Shown here piece after piece: positions 25,787 through 59,165 of a stretch of DNA of 64,000 nucleotides. Source of the DNA: an uncultured delta proteobacterium (GTDB taxonomy: Bacteria; Desulfobacterota; Syntrophobacteria; Syntrophobacterales; Syntrophobacteraceae). The stretch is taken from assembly GCA_963808625.1 (NCBI GenBank), contig CAWEHK010000036.1, forward strand, positions 1-64,000, given 5' to 3'. The notes beneath the pieces are model-generated. The model ran no database searches. It was not told the origin of the DNA and was given only the letters and a program-made list of their open reading frames with translations. Position 1 is the first letter of the stretch; each line of letters begins with the position of its first letter. The position numbers and the translations under genes are program-made.

Positions 25787-27005
25787 CATGACTTCTCAAC
25801 GTTCCGCCCTGGTGGCGTCCGGCAAGGTTTATCGAAACCCGTGGCATCAGCCGCCGAGTGGCGCAGATTACCATTTCCGCCATCAAGGAGATGCCGCTCA
25901 TTGCCAGCAAGGTGGGAGGGTGCGTGTCGCTGGGCCAGGGCATTCCTTCGTTTCCCACCCCTCCGCATATTGTTGATGCCGTGTGCCGGATGATGCGAGA
26001 CGACCCGGACGCGGAAAGTACACCCTGGGTCCCGGCATGCCCGCGCTGCGTCAGGCGATGGCGCGTCATCTGAGCGGGCAAATTGGGCGGCCGGTCGATC
26101 CGGACAGCGAAATCTGCGTCACCGTGGGCGCCATGGAAGCCCTGTCCGGCAGCGATCCTCACGGTGGTGGACCGCGGCGACGAAGTGATCCTGCCGTCCC
26201 CCAATTACGCTTCCCACATCGAACAGGTGCTCTTGGCCGAAGGGGTGCCGGTTTTTGTACCGCTGCATAAGCGACTGGCAGCTGGATGTGGACGGCATTC
26301 GCCGGGCCATCACTCCAGAACGAGGCGATCATTCTGTGCAACCCCCACAACCCCACCGGGGCCAATTTCTCCGAAGCGGATTTACGCGGTGGCGGAATTG
26401 GCCATCGCCACGATCTGTTGGTCATCTGCGACGAAACCTATGATTTCCTGGTCTATGACGGGCGGTCGCATTTCAGCCTCATGAGCCTTCCCGGAACTGC
26501 GAGAGAGGATCATCGCCACCTTCAGCTTTTCCAAGAAATATGCCATGACCGGCTGGCGGGTGGGATATGTCTATGCGGCCGAAGGGATTCTCGATCAGAT
26601 CATGAAGATCCACGATGCGGTGGCCATCTGCGCTCCGACCCTTTCGCAGTATGCGGCCCTGGCCGCCCTGCAGGGTCCTCAGGATTGCGTGGCGGAAATC
26701 CGGACAGCCCTGCAGCAGCGCCGCGACCTGACCTGCGGCCGCCTGGATGTTCGACGGTTCTTCGATTACGTCAAGCCGCACGGCGCGTATTACCTCATGG
26801 CCCGCTACAAGATCCGGACGTGGATTCCATGAACTTCGCCCTGCGCCTGCTTCACGAGGCCCGCGTCATCACCATCCCCGGCGCCGCTTTCGGCCCGACC
26901 GGGGAAAACCACATTCGCATGTCGTTCGGCGGTACCGAATCGGAGATCAACGAAGCTTTCGACCGCATCGAACAGTGGTTGCACACCCATCGAGGCACCG
27001 CATAA
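25787..27005 (+). CDS. PLP-dependent aminotransferase class I/II (frameshifts; start approximate)
   Basis: LGQGIP, NPHNPTG, DETYD, SFSKKYAMTGWRVG, PGAAFG fragments. Confidence 0.85.
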
Positions 27006-27053
27006 CCATTGACGTTGCGGCTTAATCCTATCGCGACCCTTGCGAATTCTCGC

Positions 27054-27085
27054 TTGACATGTCGTACGTTGTCGCGTACTAGAAT
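27054..27085 (+). promoter_or_regulatory. Putative promoter/operator of the YefM-YoeB module
   Basis: TTGACA at 27054; GTACG-N6-CGTAC palindrome in the spacer. Confidence 0.5.
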
Positions 27086-27113
27086 GATATCACGCTCAAG
27101 ACGGAGGAATGAC

Positions 27114-27356
27114 ATGGCTACCCTTACCGCCAGTGAGGCTCGAACGAAGCTATATCGTCTCATCGACGAGGCCGCCGCCTCGCATGAGCCGGTGCTTATT
27201 ACCGGCAAGCGCACCAATGCTGTCCTGGTCTCGGAGGAGGACTGGCGAGCTATCCAGGAGACGGTGTATCTGCTCTCGATTCCTGGTATGCGGGAGTCGA
27301 TCAGAGAAGGGCTGAATACCCCGATCGCGGAATGTGCGAAGGACCTCGATTGGTGA
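27114..27356 (+). CDS. yefM: Phd/YefM family antitoxin
   Basis: ASEARTKLYRLID..HEPVLITGKRTNAVLVSEEDW..IQETVYL. Confidence 0.9.
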   Translation: MATLTASEARTKLYRLIDEAAASHEPVLITGKRTNAVLVSEEDWRAIQETVYLLSIPGMRESIREGLNTPIAECAKDLDW

Positions 27357-51611: not shown

Positions 51612-51622
51612 CGTATTGGAAG

Positions 51623-51686
51623 CCCTAACCCTTCCAACGAACGGTCAGCCCACGACAAACAGTGGTATGCCGCTCATGTTACACAT
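51623..51686 (+). other. attC site 3, R' core split by the IIC intron (remainder TAGGC at 52047-52051)
   Basis: CCCTAACCCTTCCAACGAACGG..CCGCTCATGTTACACAT|TAGGC matches the common CTAACCCTTCCATCGA..TCATGTCAAACGTTAGGC attC type. Confidence 0.75.
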
Positions 51687-52046
51687 GTGTGCCGGGCATG
51701 GCACAGAACTAGCGAGGTGGAAGTCCTCGTGCCAGGTTTACGCTGAGCCGAAGGCTAGGAGAAGGGCAAGGGCGTCATCGAGAACTGGAGTCTGAAGGAA
51801 GTCCAATCCAACAGCACGCGGCGACTAACAGAACCCGAATATGAGGTGTGGTACGTTCGGGACCGCCGGGCACGTGACTGCGAAGTCCTGCCTTGGCGAT
51901 TGCCCTGCCCGGCAAGTGTTTTGTGTCTATAGGTCTACCGCAACTGTTTGAGAAACCGACTTCATCTGCTGAACCCCCTTGGTACGTGATCTGTATGCCG
52001 GGTGGTGTGGGAGGAGGGAAGACGTGAGGCGGCTCCCTATCCCGAT
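51687..52046 (+). mobile_element. Internally deleted group IIC intron (360 nt)
   Basis: 5' GTGTGCCGGGCATGG; IIC DI motifs (GCAAGGGCGTC..GTCTGAAGGAAG); IEP tail LAIALPGKCFVSIGLPQL; DV/DVI ending CCTATCCCGAT. Confidence 0.85.
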
Positions 52047-53331: not shown

Positions 53332-53418
53332 ATGCATCTGTTTGAGGTAGGTTAAGATTTGAGAACGGTCCACGCACTGCTAGGCGATAGCGACGTCAAG
53401 ATAACGATGATTCATTAG
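53332..53418 (+). pseudogene. Integron-integrase/tyrosine recombinase C-terminal relic
   Basis: Translates HLFEVG*DLRTVHALLGDSDVKITMIH vs IntI-type HLLExGYDIRTVQELLGHSDVxTTMIY. Confidence 0.7.
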
Positions 53419-53430
53419 AAAAGAAAAATC

Positions 53431-54147
53431 ATGAAAAAAGCAATCATCATTGGCGCCAGTTCCGGGATAGGACGCGAATTGGCCAGAATTTTATCAAGGA
53501 ATCAGTACGTTGTTGGAGTCATGGCACGGCGAGTTCAGCTATTGGATGAAATGTGTGATGAAGTAGAAGGATCATTATTTGTTCAAGAAATCGATGTAGC
53601 GAACGTTGAATCGGCAATGGACACTCTGGCAAAATTCATAAAAGAAATGGGTGGTGTAGATCTTATCGTGATCAGTGCCGGCACAGGGGACATCAATAAT
53701 AACCTCAGTTGGGACTTGGAAAACAAGGCCATCAAGACCAATGTTAGTGGGTTTGCCGCTCTTGTTAATGTTGCCATGCACCATTTCACGGAAAAGGGTT
53801 CCGGGCACCTTGTAGGTATCTCGTCAATCGCAGCGTTGCGTGGCGGCAGAGAATCTCCCGCCTATAACGCATCAAAGGCTTTTGAATCCAATTATCTGGA
53901 AGGGCTTCGCCAGAAGGTTAGGAAATCTGGATTGCCAATCACAATCACTGACATAAAACCAGGGTTTGTTAATACGGCAATGGCCAAAGGAGATGGCATC
54001 TTCTGGGCTGCCGAGCCTGGAAAAGCCGCAAGGCAGATATACCATGTCATCAAACGAAGAAAGTCCAGTGCCTATATTACACGGCGATGGGTACTGATAG
54101 CGTGGCTAATAAAGTTGCTGCCTGGATTCATTTATGAAAGGCTATAA
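53431..54147 (+). CDS. SDR family oxidoreductase, cassette-borne
   Basis: IIGASSGIG, YNASK, PGFVNT; AT-rich; followed by attC. Confidence 0.92.
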   Translation: MKKAIIIGASSGIGRELARILSRNQYVVGVMARRVQLLDEMCDEVEGSLFVQEIDVANVESAMDTLAKFIKEMGGVDLIVISAGTGDINNNLSWDLENKAIKTNVSGFAALVNVAMHHFTEKGSGHLVGISSIAALRGGRESPAYNASKAFESNYLEGLRQKVRKSGLPITITDIKPGFVNTAMAKGDGIFWAAEPGKAARQIYHVIKRRKSSAYITRRWVLIAWLIKLLPGFIYERL

Positions 54148-54150
54148 TTC

Positions 54151-54213
54151 TTATAACCATGGCATGCAGTCGATCGCTGAAAAAGCCGGCTCCCGCTGAT
54201 GCCTTCGTTGGGT
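54151..54213 (+). other. attC site 4
   Basis: R'' TTATAAC, GGCATGCAG.CG/CGCTGATGCC dyad with extrahelical G, R' GTTGGGT. Confidence 0.8.
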
Positions 54214-56476
54214 TGCGACACGATGTCGCATAGTTGAGTGTACTCAGGTACTTACCTGGAGTACCCGGCATGTTCCTGCCGGACCCTACGCAGGCGTGCT
54301 ACCGTCGCGCTGATGACGGGGTGCGAAGCCCTGCGGACAATGTACCGAAACGGGTTCGAATGGTGACAGGAGAACCCCTCCGGGAATCCTCCCCGGTTAA
54401 GGGCTAGGGTCGGATGATACGGTGAAATTAATTGAATGTCTGCAAGCGTCGTCAAAGAGCGACAGACCTACGAGGATTAACAAGAAGCATTACCAGGTCG
54501 AAGGCCGCTTCCCAGTGTTTGCGGCAAGGGTCAGGATGCAGGTCTCCTAACTGCCTGTACGGAACCAAAGCACCCTCGGCGTAGAGGACGCACCTAAGTC
54601 ATCCATTGGATCAACTGTGAGGAACGTGGTAACCCCGCCCTTCGCCTGGAGCAAGTCCAGGCAAGCGAACCGCAAGGCACGCCGATGGAGAGGCGGGAGG
54701 GAGAGGTTGGAAGAAGCGAATGCTTTCGGGAAAGCCGGAAGATAGGGCCTGAAACATGGCTCAACGCCAAAACCGGTGAGCTTCAGCCCCGGTGAATGAG
54801 CGTGCAGACGTCCAACTGGTGTCTCGTTGCGAGAGAACTGGTAGAACCTTTGAAGATGAGAAAGCAAATGACGGCCGACAAGGCTGGTGCACTCAGAGAT
54901 GACGCTGACAAGTGGAATTCCATTGACTGGAAGAAAGCCCAGCGGGAAGTCAGAAGGCTGCAAGTGCGTATCGCAAAGGCTGTGAAGGAAAACAGATGGA
55001 ACAAGGTCAAGTCACTGCAATATCTGTTAACCCATTCGTTCTACGCCAAGCTACTGGCTGTGAAACGAGTGACCTCCAACAAGGGGCGTAAAACCCCCGG
55101 CGTTGACGGCGTCCTGTGGCGAGGCGTCCGAGCCAAATGGCGGGCTGCTTGCAGCCTGCGCAGACGTGGCTATCATCCTCAGCCCTTGAGGAGGATCTAT
55201 ATCGAAAAGAAGAATGGCAAATTAAGGCCCCTATCGATTCCCGCCATGTATGACAGAGCCCAACAGGCGCTTTATAAGCTGGGACTGGCGCCCGTAGCCG
55301 AAACGACAGCCGACAAGAATTCCTACGGTTTTCGTGAAGGCAGATCGTGTGCTGATGCCGTAGCCTGTGCCTTCAATGCTCTCTCGAAGCCCAATTCGGC
55401 TCCATGGATACTCGAAGGGGACATAAAGGGCTGTTTCGACAACATCTCGTTCCAATGGATGTTGGAGAACATCCCCATGGATAAAGTCGTTCTTCAAAAG
55501 TGGTTAAGGGCAGGGTATGTGGAAAACGGCATCCACTACCCTACACGCAAGGGAGTTCCTCAAGGTGGGATCATTAGCCCCACCATCTCGAATATGGTGC
55601 TTGACGGATTGGAGGAAGCCGTCCGCTGTGCAGTCCCCCGCAGGTGCCGTATCAACTTCGACCGCTACGCTGATGACTTCATCTGCACAGGTAAATCAAA
55701 AGGTATCCTGGAAGATGCCATCCAGCCAGTGGTTGAAGGCTTCCTTGCCGAGCGTGGTCTTGAGCTCTCACCCGAGAAAACCCTGATCACGCACATAAAA
55801 GACGGATTCACGTTCCTCGGGCAAACCTTTCGAAAGCATGGCCGGGTGCTGCACATCACGCCATCCACTGAGGGAGTTCTCGCCCTCATGCAGAAAGTGG
55901 GAACCATAATCCGCGAACACGTCAGCGCGCCGATGCCGGTCTTGATCAAGAAGCTTAATGCAATACTTCGGGGTTGGGCCAATTACCACCGCCACGTGGT
56001 GGCGTCGGAAGCCTTCAGTCGTATCGACACCTATGTCTTTGAACAACTCTGGCGCATGGTGCGCCGACGGCACTCCGCCAAATCCGCGCAATGGCTGATC
56101 AAGAACTACTGGTCAGCTGCGGGACGCAATGTATTTGCCGTTCTGGCCAAGACCGCTAAGACCGCGAAGAAACTCTACAAGGTCATGCGAGTAAGCGCCA
56201 TGGGGATTCGGAGATATGTGAAGATCAAAGCGGATGCTAATCCTTACCTGCCTGAGTACGCCGGCTATTATTGGCGACGTCGGAACAGGAAGGATAGCAA
56301 ACTGCTGCCGGCCATGTCGGCCCGGGAATTTCGGGCCATGGCCTCGGCTTAGGAGGCAACACAGCCGGGCAGCCCAACAGGGGCTGCCTCTTGAGATGCT
56401 TGAGCGGTGTGACGCGAAAGTGTCATGCACCGTTCTTAGGGGGGAATGGGGCCGAGAGGCCCCTGACCTACCCGGT
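54213..56476 (+). mobile_element. Full-length group II intron, IIB/chloroplast-like class (about 2264 nt)
   Basis: 5' TTGCGACACG; GGAACGTGGTAA DI/DII junction; DV GAGCGGTGTGACGCGAAAGTGTCATGCACCGTTC; DVI ending CTACCCGGT. Confidence 0.9.
54856..56352 (+). CDS. ltrA: Group II intron reverse transcriptase/maturase without HNH domain (open frame starts at 54796)
   Basis: RVT_N (VRRLQVRIAKA), TPGVDG, RPLSIP, YGFR.GRS, GDIKGCFD, PQGG, YADD, RGWANY; stops soon after KIKADANPY. Confidence 0.95.
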   Translation: MRKQMTADKAGALRDDADKWNSIDWKKAQREVRRLQVRIAKAVKENRWNKVKSLQYLLTHSFYAKLLAVKRVTSNKGRKTPGVDGVLWRGVRAKWRAACSLRRRGYHPQPLRRIYIEKKNGKLRPLSIPAMYDRAQQALYKLGLAPVAETTADKNSYGFREGRSCADAVACAFNALSKPNSAPWILEGDIKGCFDNISFQWMLENIPMDKVVLQKWLRAGYVENGIHYPTRKGVPQGGIISPTISNMVLDGLEEAVRCAVPRRCRINFDRYADDFICTGKSKGILEDAIQPVVEGFLAERGLELSPEKTLITHIKDGFTFLGQTFRKHGRVLHITPSTEGVLALMQKVGTIIREHVSAPMPVLIKKLNAILRGWANYHRHVVASEAFSRIDTYVFEQLWRMVRRRHSAKSAQWLIKNYWSAAGRNVFAVLAKTAKTAKKLYKVMRVSAMGIRRYVKIKADANPYLPEYAGYYWRRRNRKDSKLLPAMSAREFRAMASA

Positions 56477-56548
56477 TTGCAGCGGTCGGAAGGAGACGAG
56501 GTGCAAAGGTTCCGGATATTCGTTCCCCGAACATAAGGAGAAGAGGAA

Positions 56549-58060
56549 ATGATGGCGTTTAGCAAACTACGGATGTGGATGGCTGTGACAGCCCTTGTCA
56601 CGAGCGTTGTCACGACGGCTTCGGCCCAGACCTTCAGCATGACGACGCCGATCGCGCCGGGCGTGGCCACGCCCAACCGGCTCGATACCTCGATTGGCAC
56701 GCTGAACCTGTCCGACGGCTTCCCGGCGCCGGACACCATCGAGAAGATCTACGACAACCTGGACCGCTCGCGTGCGCTGCAGGCCTATCTGCTGGCCATC
56801 CCGATCGTCAACCAGGCAGGCATGCGCGATTCGCTTCGCAAGTTCGGGCCCGACAACCAGACCAACGTGATCTGGGAGAACCTGGTCGATTCGAAGACCG
56901 TGGAGCTGACGGCCAACGACAACACGATCTACAGCTTCATCTGGATCGATACGAAGAAGGGGCCGTTGGTCGTCGATGTCCCCCCCATGGTCCTGGGAGC
57001 CATCGATGACTTCTGGTATCGCTGGGTGGCCGACATCGGCATCACGGGTGCCGACAGGGGCAAGGGCGGCAAGTACCTGATTCTTCCGCCGGGGTACCAG
57101 GGCGCGATCCCGGAAGGCTATTTCGTCGTACGACCGAAGACCTACGGCAACTGGATGCCCTTCCGGTCCTTCCTCGTTGACGGTTCAACCAAGCCAGGGG
57201 TGGAGTCGGTCAAGAAGCACCTGAAGATCTACCAACTGGCCGATGCGGCCAACCCGCCGCCGATCAAGTTTGCCAATGCCTCGGGCGTACCAGCGAACTT
57301 CGTCGCCCCGGGTGACTATTCGTTCTGGACCTTGCTGAACCAGGTGATTCAGGAAGAACCGCCGGAAGGCTCCGACCCCACCACGCTTGGGCTGTTCGCT
57401 TCGATCGGCATCGTCAAGGGCAAGCCCTTCAATCCCGACGAGCGCATGAAGAAGATCCTGACCGACGCCGCCAACATCGGTGCGGTGACGGCGCGAACGC
57501 TCGCCTTCAAGATTCGCGAGCCGGAAGCCTTCTTCTACCCGAACAGCTCATGGCGCCTGCCGTTCTTCGGTGGCTACAAGTTCGAAGTCGCCCCCGGCGT
57601 TGCAAACCTGGATGGAGCTGCCTTCTTCTACTATTTCGCCACCGGCGTGACGCCGGCGATGGAAGAGAAAATGGTCGGCCAGGGCTCACAGTACCCGTGG
57701 GCCTCCCTGGACTCGAAGGGCAACCCCTTCGACGGCGGCAAGACGTACAAGCTGCGCCTGCCGCCGAACATCCCGGTGAAGGACTTCTGGTCGGTGATCG
57801 TCTACGACAACCAGACGCGCTCGATGCTGCAGACCGACCAGCAGGCGCCCAGCGTGAGCAGCCAGGACAAGGGCTTCAAAACCAATGCCGACGGCTCGGT
57901 GGACGTCTGGTTCGGCCCCAAGGCCCCGCCCGGCATGGAGAAGAACTGGGTGCAGACGATTCCGGGCAAGGGCTGGTTCATGATCCTGCGCCTCTACGGT
58001 CCGTTGGAGCCTTGGTTCAACAAGACCTGGCGGCCCGGAGAGATCGAACTCCAGCCGTGA
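56549..58060 (+). CDS. DUF1254/DUF1214 exported protein, cassette-borne
   Basis: Signal peptide, LTANDNTIYS, GADRGKGGKYLILPP, FWSVIVYD, LRLYGP..WRPGEIE. Confidence 0.9.
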   Translation: MMAFSKLRMWMAVTALVTSVVTTASAQTFSMTTPIAPGVATPNRLDTSIGTLNLSDGFPAPDTIEKIYDNLDRSRALQAYLLAIPIVNQAGMRDSLRKFGPDNQTNVIWENLVDSKTVELTANDNTIYSFIWIDTKKGPLVVDVPPMVLGAIDDFWYRWVADIGITGADRGKGGKYLILPPGYQGAIPEGYFVVRPKTYGNWMPFRSFLVDGSTKPGVESVKKHLKIYQLADAANPPPIKFANASGVPANFVAPGDYSFWTLLNQVIQEEPPEGSDPTTLGLFASIGIVKGKPFNPDERMKKILTDAANIGAVTARTLAFKIREPEAFFYPNSSWRLPFFGGYKFEVAPGVANLDGAAFFYYFATGVTPAMEEKMVGQGSQYPWASLDSKGNPFDGGKTYKLRLPPNIPVKDFWSVIVYDNQTRSMLQTDQQAPSVSSQDKGFKTNADGSVDVWFGPKAPPGMEKNWVQTIPGKGWFMILRLYGPLEPWFNKTWRPGEIELQP

Positions 58061-58101
58061 TTTGTCGGTACTGCTCGTTTGGTCGCACCGCCGAGTGAGC
58101 G

Positions 58102-58162
58102 GCCCAACAACCGGTTTCAGCGGACGGCGCTGACTCGCCGCCGCTGAAACGGGGCGTTATTC
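58102..58162 (+). other. attC site 5 (best conserved)
   Basis: R'' GCCCAAC, TTTCAGCGGACGGCG/CGCCGCCGCTGAAA dyad, R' GTT at 58156; 61 bp. Confidence 0.9.
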
Positions 58163-58537: not shown

Positions 58538-58936
58538 TCATATCCAGTCGATTTCGACCTTGTGCTCGATCTTTTTGAACTCTGGATCGCCAGTGACGAT
58601 CACGGCGTTGTATTTGAGTGCGGTTGCCATCGCAAAGCAATCGGCGTAGGAAACGGCATCGTCAGCTTTTATTTGGGAGGCCGATTCAATGATTTCCCAA
58701 GAGGCCGGAACGCGTTCGATGGCCAACGTCGTGAACTGTTCCAGGAAGCGCCTGGCCGATTCAACGCCCAGTCTTCTGATGGTGATGTAATACAGCTCCC
58801 CCAAATTGATCTCGTTGATGAAGGTACGAATTCTTCCGTCTTCCGACGCCTTGAGAAGCTCTTCGACCTTGTCGGCCCCCGCTTCGTCCTGGGCAAACCT
58901 CAGGATCGCGTGGGAATCAAATACGACGCTTTTCAT
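58538..58936 (-). CDS. vapC: VapC/PIN domain toxin
   Basis: VVFDSHAIL, INLGELYY, SYADCF, IVTGDPEF. Confidence 0.9.
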   Translation of the reverse strand: MKSVVFDSHAILRFAQDEAGADKVEELLKASEDGRIRTFINEINLGELYYITIRRLGVESARRFLEQFTTLAIERVPASWEIIESASQIKADDAVSYADCFAMATALKYNAVIVTGDPEFKKIEHKVEIDWI

Positions 58937-59165
58937 CGATGGCGTCATCCTTCTTTCTCTCCTCCAGGAGTTCTGCGGCAAGCGACGTGTCAGCCCGGAG
59001 CATCCCTCGCAACGCCTTGACCGGTTCCTCAGGGATCGGCACGATTTCCGCGTGCTGGTCTACGACCCTCAACAAAACTTTTCGCCCCGGGTTAATTCCC
59101 AGCTTGTCGCGGATCTCTTTAGGGATCACAATCTGTCCCTTGGACGATATTTTTACCACCGGCAT
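58917..59165 (-). CDS. AbrB/MazE/SpoVT family antitoxin
   Basis: KISSKGQIVIPKEIRDKLGINPG; overlaps toxin start. Confidence 0.9.
   Translation of the reverse strand: MPVVKISSKGQIVIPKEIRDKLGINPGRKVLLRVVDQHAEIVPIPEEPVKALRGMLRADTSLAAELLEERKKDDAIDEKRRI

Follow-up and report, generated by a model that had tools for sequence, protein, structure and literature searches.

The window, a stretch of 64,000 nucleotides (positions 1 to 64,000 of contig CAWEHK010000036.1, assembly GCA_963808625.1) from an uncultured delta proteobacterium of the Syntrophobacteraceae, carries a complete CL1/IIB1 group II intron without an endonuclease, which lies in cassette orientation in the R' core of an integron attC site. 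Comparison with related introns supports its assignment to a widespread lineage specialised on integron core sites, one that inserts in sense orientation at cassette starts and is independent of the class C introns of attC sites (IIC-attC). Comparative analysis of the retrieved sequences showed the programming of the intron's exon-binding sites 1 and 3 (EBS1 and EBS3), the orientation, the register and the independent multiple insertion. The larger picture – a mobile retroelement of such a lineage, together with the proposed mechanism as a whole – is considered probable. The features around the insertion point are:

54151..54212, + strand: target attC site, with R'' at 54151-57, L'' at 54163-70, L' at 54195-54201 and the first six R' bases, the intron-binding site 1 (IBS1), at 54207-12
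54213..56476, + strand: group IIB1/CL1 intron of 2264 nt with ends TTGCG...CCGGT (Rfam RF02012 and RF00029)
54868..56352, + strand: intron-encoded reverse transcriptase (RT)/maturase, 494 amino acids from the likely start, YADD motif intact
56402..56476, + strand: domains V and VI, with the AGC triad at 56403-05 and the bulged A at 56470 (Rfam RF00029)
56549..58060, + strand: DUF1254/DUF1214 gene of the downstream cassette (Pfam)
58102..58162, + strand: attC site of the downstream cassette, with R'' GCCCAAC matching GTTGGG and a bottom-strand hairpin (z -4.48)

Rfam matches cover domain I (54264-54404, 80 bits) and domains V and VI (56400-56476, 62 bits, RF00029), and the boundaries at 54213 and 56476 are consistent across homologs. 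The RT/maturase, whose start codon was inferred from a purine run upstream, contains only the Pfam domains RVT_N, RVT_1 and GIIM, with no endonuclease domain. Its best solved relative is 6me0_C (525 bits; 133 for the IIA protein LtrA and 116 for the IIC protein GsI-IIC), from an intron that is CL1/IIB1 according to PMC8643678. Alpha, beta, a 6-nt EBS1 and EBS3 were all placed in domain I by covariation, which is the anatomy of CL1/IIB1 introns. Class C traits are absent – the triad is AGC rather than CGC, and EBS1 has 6 nt rather than 3-4 nt. The site is not that of the IIC-attC introns either: insertion is in the top strand at GTTGGG/T (the slash marks the insertion point) and in the same orientation as the cassettes, not in the bottom strand at TTGT/T.

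The R'' box of the target attC is TTATAAC, and the GTTGGG of its R' box is followed directly by the TTGCG of the intron at 54213. The site (54151-54213) has canonical box spacing and scores 6.5 out of 7 in the attC grammar described below, a score reached by 0.1-0.2% of controls, and its bottom strand takes the canonical shape, with R and L boxes folded, though weakly (z -0.26). The DUF1254/DUF1214 gene starts 72 nt past the intron, with its ribosome-binding site (RBS) in the 3' exon. An earlier note, made from this DNA alone, had described a CL1/IIB intron without an endonuclease starting directly 3' of GTTGGG in an attC R' core, and a next attC whose R'' GCCCAAC matches GTTGGG; the Pfam scan and the coordinates agree with this on every point, and every motif that it named stands where it had placed it. 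Its core observation and its idea of a lineage were borne out, while its EBS2, its alpha' and its account of the first intron base were wrong.

Target sites of related introns

Homologous loci were collected by protein (79 + 80), by alignment (79 + 79) and from related genomes, and 117 more were found by a 5'-end pattern and kept only if homologous to the intron. Once duplicate flanks and loci with less than 100 nt upstream had been dropped, 124 distinct 5' flanks remained. These were scored with a home-made attC grammar, in which a score of at least 6 was a strict pass; an early form that missed sites under about 55 bp was later widened. Controls were 3000 GTTRRR sites of the window's own genome.

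GTT stands at position -6 or -5 in 96 of the 124 flanks, compared with none of 29 more distant CL1 introns (some of them near-identical pairs). The strict grammar is passed by 58 of the 124, compared with 0.7% of controls, and attC targeting, as the earlier note had supposed, is a trait of the lineage. All 58 belong to the 114 flanks of the attC clade, 95 of which have GTT; a set of ten retargeted introns has GTT in one flank and no strict pass. A looser test (grammar score of at least 5.5, or an L'-box motif) is passed by 84 of the 114 and by 5.6% of controls. An inverted-repeat test that makes no use of the grammar is passed by 42 of 93 clade flanks, compared with 0 of 8 and 1 of 29 in other groups. 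Because the sampled introns are kin, the flank counts cannot be treated as independent events; the targets can, as 91 different downstream flanks occur among 107 intron records, which points to independent insertions. Only four strict attC sites free of an intron were found. The ribozyme had no match in 72,556 plasmids, and viral scans gave one core-clade locus.

Trees were built from the retrieved relatives only, the IQ-TREE run being a quick search that covered 72 of the 178 rows. The core clade is well supported (FastTree 1.0; Shimodaira-Hasegawa-like approximate likelihood ratio test, SH-aLRT, 100). Homologs in unrelated targets with variable EBS1, which the earlier note had named as evidence against its proposal, do exist and count in part against it; they form one subclade nested in the core clade (FastTree 0.977; SH-aLRT 98). 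Members of this subclade have 77-82% protein identity, with EBS1, EBS2 and EBS3 altered to match their targets. The retargeted set, seven by tree position and three by flank or ribozyme only, is:

L226, L228, L229, L231, L232, L235, L237, L239, L241, L258: introns at targets unrelated to attC

The simplest reading of the trees is that attC targeting is ancestral and was followed by one reversion to ordinary targets. More distant relatives (47-56% identity) insert 3 to 6 bases into the GTT core with EBS1 shifted to match, and 11 of 17 have an inverted repeat ahead of the site. The wider clade that includes them has FastTree support of 0.949 and was not resolved by the IQ-TREE quick search, so a single origin is not claimed. 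CL1 introns also occur in Bacteroidales records (L315-L317, L322, L043 and L054). L315-L317 and L322 have long inverted repeats ahead of their insertion point, [AC]CGTT[GA]/, and an EBS1 that fits it; intI had no match at 1e-40 in their genome, G063, and these sites may be atypical attC-like repeats.

Within single genomes the introns can be numerous. The window's own genome (G000) has five more copies, after GTTAGC, ATTATG, GTTGGC, GTTAGG and GTTGGC, of which two score 7 in the attC grammar, two are weak and one has no score. Three of the five are introns of 830 nt without an open reading frame (ORF):

G000 C44:27122-27953: ORF-less copy
G000 C53:54794-55625: ORF-less copy
G000 C41:4717-5546: ORF-less copy

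Other ORF-less derivatives were seen at L105, L118, L126, L138, L532 and L533. With lengths of about 800-900 nt they keep both ends and EBS1, and they are probably mobilised in trans. Near 27000-27121 of G000 C44, a complete attC is followed directly by a second one without R'', and the intron lies in the core of the truncated site.

The densest occupation is in an array of genome G061, downstream of an intact intI. Twelve grammar matches were found there and three were judged false by eye; a CL1 intron sits at GTTnnn/ in eight of the nine that remain. These introns are of two types, and one of the attC sites holds three introns head to tail. Stacking at one attC core was seen at G061:C1:3329531-3334800 (L522), L222 and L279, and among the stacked introns are two CL1 types that share about 55% identity. 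In a comparison aimed at replication-strand bias, the G061 copies follow the strand of their arrays and are both leading and lagging by GC skew; the skew in the window's own genome is weak.

The array occupancy and the flank survey together refute the idea that the window intron is an ordinary homing CL1 intron that came to lie beside an attC by chance. The retargeted subclade does act like ordinary homing introns, but the attC core is the sole feature common to more than 100 unrelated target loci, and the chance that this reading is right is close to nil. A further possibility is survivorship – insertion at any GTTRRR, with only the copies at cassette starts persisting because they are harmless and transcribed. 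About a quarter of the flanks score as non-attC, and coding sequence is spared at cassette starts, as this would predict. It is nevertheless very improbable, given that eight of nine sites are filled in one array and that the mismatched cores GTTCGG, GGTAGG and ATTATG are used when they lie within an attC.

Pairing between intron and core site

Covariation was read from an alignment of 96 domain I sequences, which placed the following elements:

54272..54276, + strand: alpha (Ib loop) GTTCC, pairing with alpha' GGAAC at 54561-54565; 98% of cells paired and 22 two-sided changes in 96 introns
54385..54391, + strand: beta', pairing with beta at 54472-54478; 96% paired, 53 two-sided changes
54452..54464, + strand: EBS2 loop region, for which the window's own target has no good partner
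54546..54551, + strand: EBS1 CCUAAC, the complement of GTTAGG, in the Id3 loop at 54544-52; covaries with IBS1
54584, + strand: EBS3 G, third base of the loop at 54582-85, pairing with the Y of GTTRRRY, which opens the 3' exon

EBS1 lies in the Id3 stem-loop (54538-58), where the earlier note had placed it, and pairs with GTTGGG through one U-G. Over 54 distinct EBS1/IBS1 combinations an average of 5.04 of the six bases at -6 to -1 are paired, compared with 3.10 in shuffled sets (maximum 3.74), and sliding EBS1 by one base lowers the pairing from 5.25 to 2.4-2.6. The pairing is loose, with only 3-4 pairs at 14 of 96 sites. The older branches have an EBS1 of YUAACG type and insert one base earlier, at CGTTRR/; with this joint shift of register and insertion point, the covariation confirms the EBS1 assignment. 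EBS3 forms a Watson-Crick pair with the first 3'-exon base in 37 of 61 cases, compared with 22.0 in shuffles. In the window's branch it is a G and reads Y; the 5-base branches have C there, which reads G. The identity of EBS3 in each branch and the register of EBS1 together mean that the two elements spell the complement of the core.

The remaining details of the RNA differ from those first proposed. GAAGGC (54500-54505) had been suggested as an EBS2 for GCCTTC; this pairing of six out of six bases occurs in one of 95 introns, the window's own, and was rejected as a coincidence. The position 54452-54464 matches the EBS2 loop of IIB1 introns in PMC8643678, and at the window site this loop has no good partner at -13 to -9 (score 3.0). 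In the retargeted introns it forms a helix of at least 4 bp with the flank at -8 to -16 in 9 of 10 cases (4.7, compared with 3.37 permuted and 3.93 in a distal control). In the attC clade the figure is 43 of 86.

For alpha', AGGGTC had been proposed as the partner of GACCCT, a pairing with 66% of cells paired and five two-sided changes only. AGGGT pairs instead with ACCCT at 54572-76 (80% paired, 88 two-sided changes), and by this covariation AGGGTC is one strand of an Id stem, with the real alpha' 3' of EBS1. Folding domain Id as a single sequence failed to recover the structure supported by covariation (z 0.48).

The initial T had been thought to restore the Y of GTTRRRY, but in close relatives at this site the first base is G. 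Across 70 of 70 complete introns a first G goes with a penultimate A and a first T with a penultimate G (the search patterns allowed only G or T and A or G at these positions), and a separate count gave 68 of 69. The tree of the core clade shows several joint switches of the two bases (G..A or T..G), a natural and clean case of covariation at this splice-boundary contact. Since the T covaries with the penultimate G, and a contact between these bases is described in PMC4238363, it is read as a compensation in splicing and not as a repair of the attC.

Proposed mechanism and alternatives

The proposed mechanism starts from the code above. By the sequence comparisons, the top-strand R' core is recognised by EBS1 and EBS3 jointly, as GTTRRR/Y in the window's branch and as CGTTRR/R in the older branches. 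Each copy thus lands 3' of the integrase crossover and before the RBS of the next cassette, leaving the gene and the GTT triplet uninterrupted. IBS1 outlasts the insertion, so that further introns stack at the same site. The remaining steps are taken from general group II intron biology: transcription of the array would yield a precursor, the RT/maturase would help it to splice, the ribonucleoprotein (RNP) would reverse-splice into transiently single-stranded top-strand DNA, and priming would come from the replication fork, as there is no endonuclease. The intron would belong to the downstream cassette and could move with it.

EBS1 tolerates mismatches, EBS2 is often without a partner and the window's own genome has 11,684 GTTRRR sites. 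From these facts it is argued, at about even confidence, that extra specificity may come from the attC itself, as a top-strand hairpin or the L' box 5' of the site, much as class C introns insert behind stem-loops. A fuller version, put forward tentatively and at slightly less than even confidence, is that a IIB1 RNP converged on the structure targeting of class C introns, with the attC top-strand hairpin replacing a strict EBS2 and EBS1 plus EBS3 fixing the register. The trait may extend to CL1 introns of about 50% protein identity, with the intron set 3 to 6 bases inside the core, and would be reversible. A separate class C lineage would be its parallel at GT/T, cassette starts would be a niche that was colonised repeatedly, and the introns would ride on cassettes moved by the integrase.

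The main alternative is targeting by sequence only: EBS1, EBS3, a loose EBS2 tuned to GAGCTT-type L' boxes and spacers, and protein contacts to the L' box, with no hairpin read. Several branches have an EBS2 that pairs over 5-6 bp with attC spacers (L017, L249, L282 and L214), the L'-box motif is in 74 of 114 flanks compared with 3.9% of controls, and weak hairpins and an attI-like site are occupied too. Against it, near-identical introns occur at sites where EBS1 forms just 3-4 pairs and EBS2 lacks a partner, and attC features are present at several of these sites; the 11,684 GTTRRR sites of the window's own genome also count against it. This explanation is held to be somewhat unlikely.

Participation of the integrase is a third possibility, either because IntI binding exposes the core or because excision and re-integration of cassettes multiplied a few insertions. 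Carrier genomes do have an intact intI, and one copy (L023) sits at an attI-like site behind such a gene. One downstream cassette occurs at both L029 and L033, each time behind a different attC site; these contigs are short, however, and may be chimeras of the assembly. Nearly every copy has a downstream flank of its own, as the count of flanks given above shows, and an intI match was found at only 6 of 121 loci within the retrieved flanking DNA. A role of this kind is rather improbable.

Direct evidence that the introns travel with cassettes is thin, and consists of the possibly chimeric pair L029/L033 and the L023 copy. The rejoined core matches the downstream R'' at 3.33 of 4 variable positions, compared with 2.23 when permuted (n = 9 loci); a stricter first pass gave 2.17 compared with 1.61 on 6 loci. 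An ORF on the same strand starts within 100 nt at 35 of 46 loci, a count made with no control comparison. At L023 and L533, intI points the same way as the cassettes.

Several observations weigh against specialisation on attC structure and against the mechanism. The window attC folds no better than shuffles and failed the inverted-repeat test, which fewer than half of the clade flanks passed, and 30 of the 114 attC-clade flanks fail both the grammar (at 5.5) and the L'-box test. EBS2 is not simply lost, as its pairing in the attC clade is above permutation (3.87 compared with 3.43). A nested subclade uses unrelated targets. The L023 copy, about 85 nt behind the intact intI, has no attC hairpin; cassette travel would account for it, and so would an insertion that needs no hairpin. 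Only nine loci yielded a downstream attC. Finally, no spliced exon junction was found in four RNA assemblies, although close relatives of the intron are present there, on contigs that span the intron only.

Other elements of the array and known introns

The rest of the array has these features:

51687..52046, + strand: remnant of a class C intron, lacking an ORF, inserted in an attC R' core past its second base, AT/TAGGC, in sense orientation (weak match to Rfam RF02001)
53332..53415, + strand: broken C-terminal fragment of an integron-type integrase (TIGR02249 match with an internal stop)
53431..54147, + strand: short-chain dehydrogenase gene of the upstream cassette (Pfam adh_short, 1.9e-32; from the ORF list)

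Only three attC sites of the array are clear (51622-51686, 54151-54213 and 58102-58162). The integrase fragment lies inside the array, directly 5' of the dehydrogenase cassette; no intact intI is on the window contig, and two matches above the cut-off are elsewhere in the same genome. The array is therefore similar to a cluster of attC sites that has no integron integrase (CALIN). Adjoining the last attC, at 58538-59165 on the - strand, are two small overlapping ORFs whose translations look like an AbrB-type antitoxin and a PIN-type toxin. Promoter and terminator scans gave results at chance level.

The remnant at 51687-52046 has a degenerate domain V. Its relatives (L441-L471) have class C-type proteins and insert in the sense strand at GT/T, which lies four bases 5' of where the window intron is inserted. 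The flanks of this family end in GT in 20 of 22 cases, with T following the intron, and the looser attC test gives 14 passes among the 22. Full-length relatives are found in several related genomes, with at least eight copies in G023, and the class C motif had no match in viral scans. By these sequence comparisons the family is a second top-strand attC lineage. Class C introns follow stem-loops. The presence of such a family at GT/T on the same strand shows that the top-strand core is usable by introns of this habit.

Same-orientation class C introns at attC are known from an E. cloacae case (PMC7923331) and from S. algae KC-Na-R1 (PMC9229058); they too are top-strand and sense, but they are class C rather than IIB1 and appear in the text of these papers as isolated oddities. 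The remnant in the window is probably of this kind. PMC9229058 also describes a CL1 and a class E intron in Shewanella integrons, along with one same-orientation class C intron.

The better known IIC-attC introns (S.ma.I2 type) resemble the window intron in being free of an endonuclease and in colonising attC sites in arrays and CALINs (PMC7923331, PMC4424553, PMC8876359). They differ in having class C RNA and protein and in inserting in the bottom strand at the R'' end, at TTGT/T and opposite to the cassettes, which splits the gene from its attC. The window intron, in the top strand at the R' end, leaves the two joined. T.e.I4h and EcI5 share with it the CL1 protein class, RVT_N, the AGC triad, alpha, beta, EBS1, the EBS2 loop and EBS3, but introns of this type home to a specific site through EBS2/EBS2a, most with an endonuclease (PMC8643678). 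The window lineage, unlike these, has a repeated and loosely conserved target and often lacks an IBS2.

The earlier note had held that only class IIC introns are described at attC sites, which is incomplete. UHB.I2 (Sonbol and Siam 2021, PMC7923331) is a CL1/IIB1 intron directly at attC, in cassette orientation and without an endonuclease, with the same ends (UUGCG..GU) and a protein about half identical, by eye, to that of the window. The authors found its flanking exons poorly conserved and its EBS3 bulge missing, and speculated on a role for a top-strand hairpin. In their table the predicted attC overlaps the first two intron bases, placing the insertion after core base 5. Its sequence, by eye, contains an anti-core EBS1 in the 5-base register, and it probably belongs to the wider group. 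Figures 4, 5 and S7 of PMC7923331 may already mark its EBS1 pairing. UHB.I2 is a single case, whereas the present lineage has more than 100 sites, an EBS1/EBS3 anti-core code, register shifts and a reversion. The lineage-level finding is thus not without precedent, but it is stronger than a view from one locus. No account of IIB1 introns that form a lineage programmed for the attC core, or of their anti-core EBS code, was found in the open literature searched (subscription papers and preprint supplements lay outside its scope).

Homing is described in PMC4424553 as the specificity of every bacterial lineage except class C, and this rule is broken by a IIB1 lineage whose fixed target is an integron site that is repeated and only loosely conserved. 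A single published oddity and its authors' speculation become a testable mechanism, for which the register-shifted branches and the nested retargeted subclade provide natural controls. The lineage also provides a natural tool for RNA-guided insertion at cassette starts. As the array with eight of nine sites filled demonstrates, environmental cassette arrays can be saturated with introns, and this should affect cassette size, expression and annotation.

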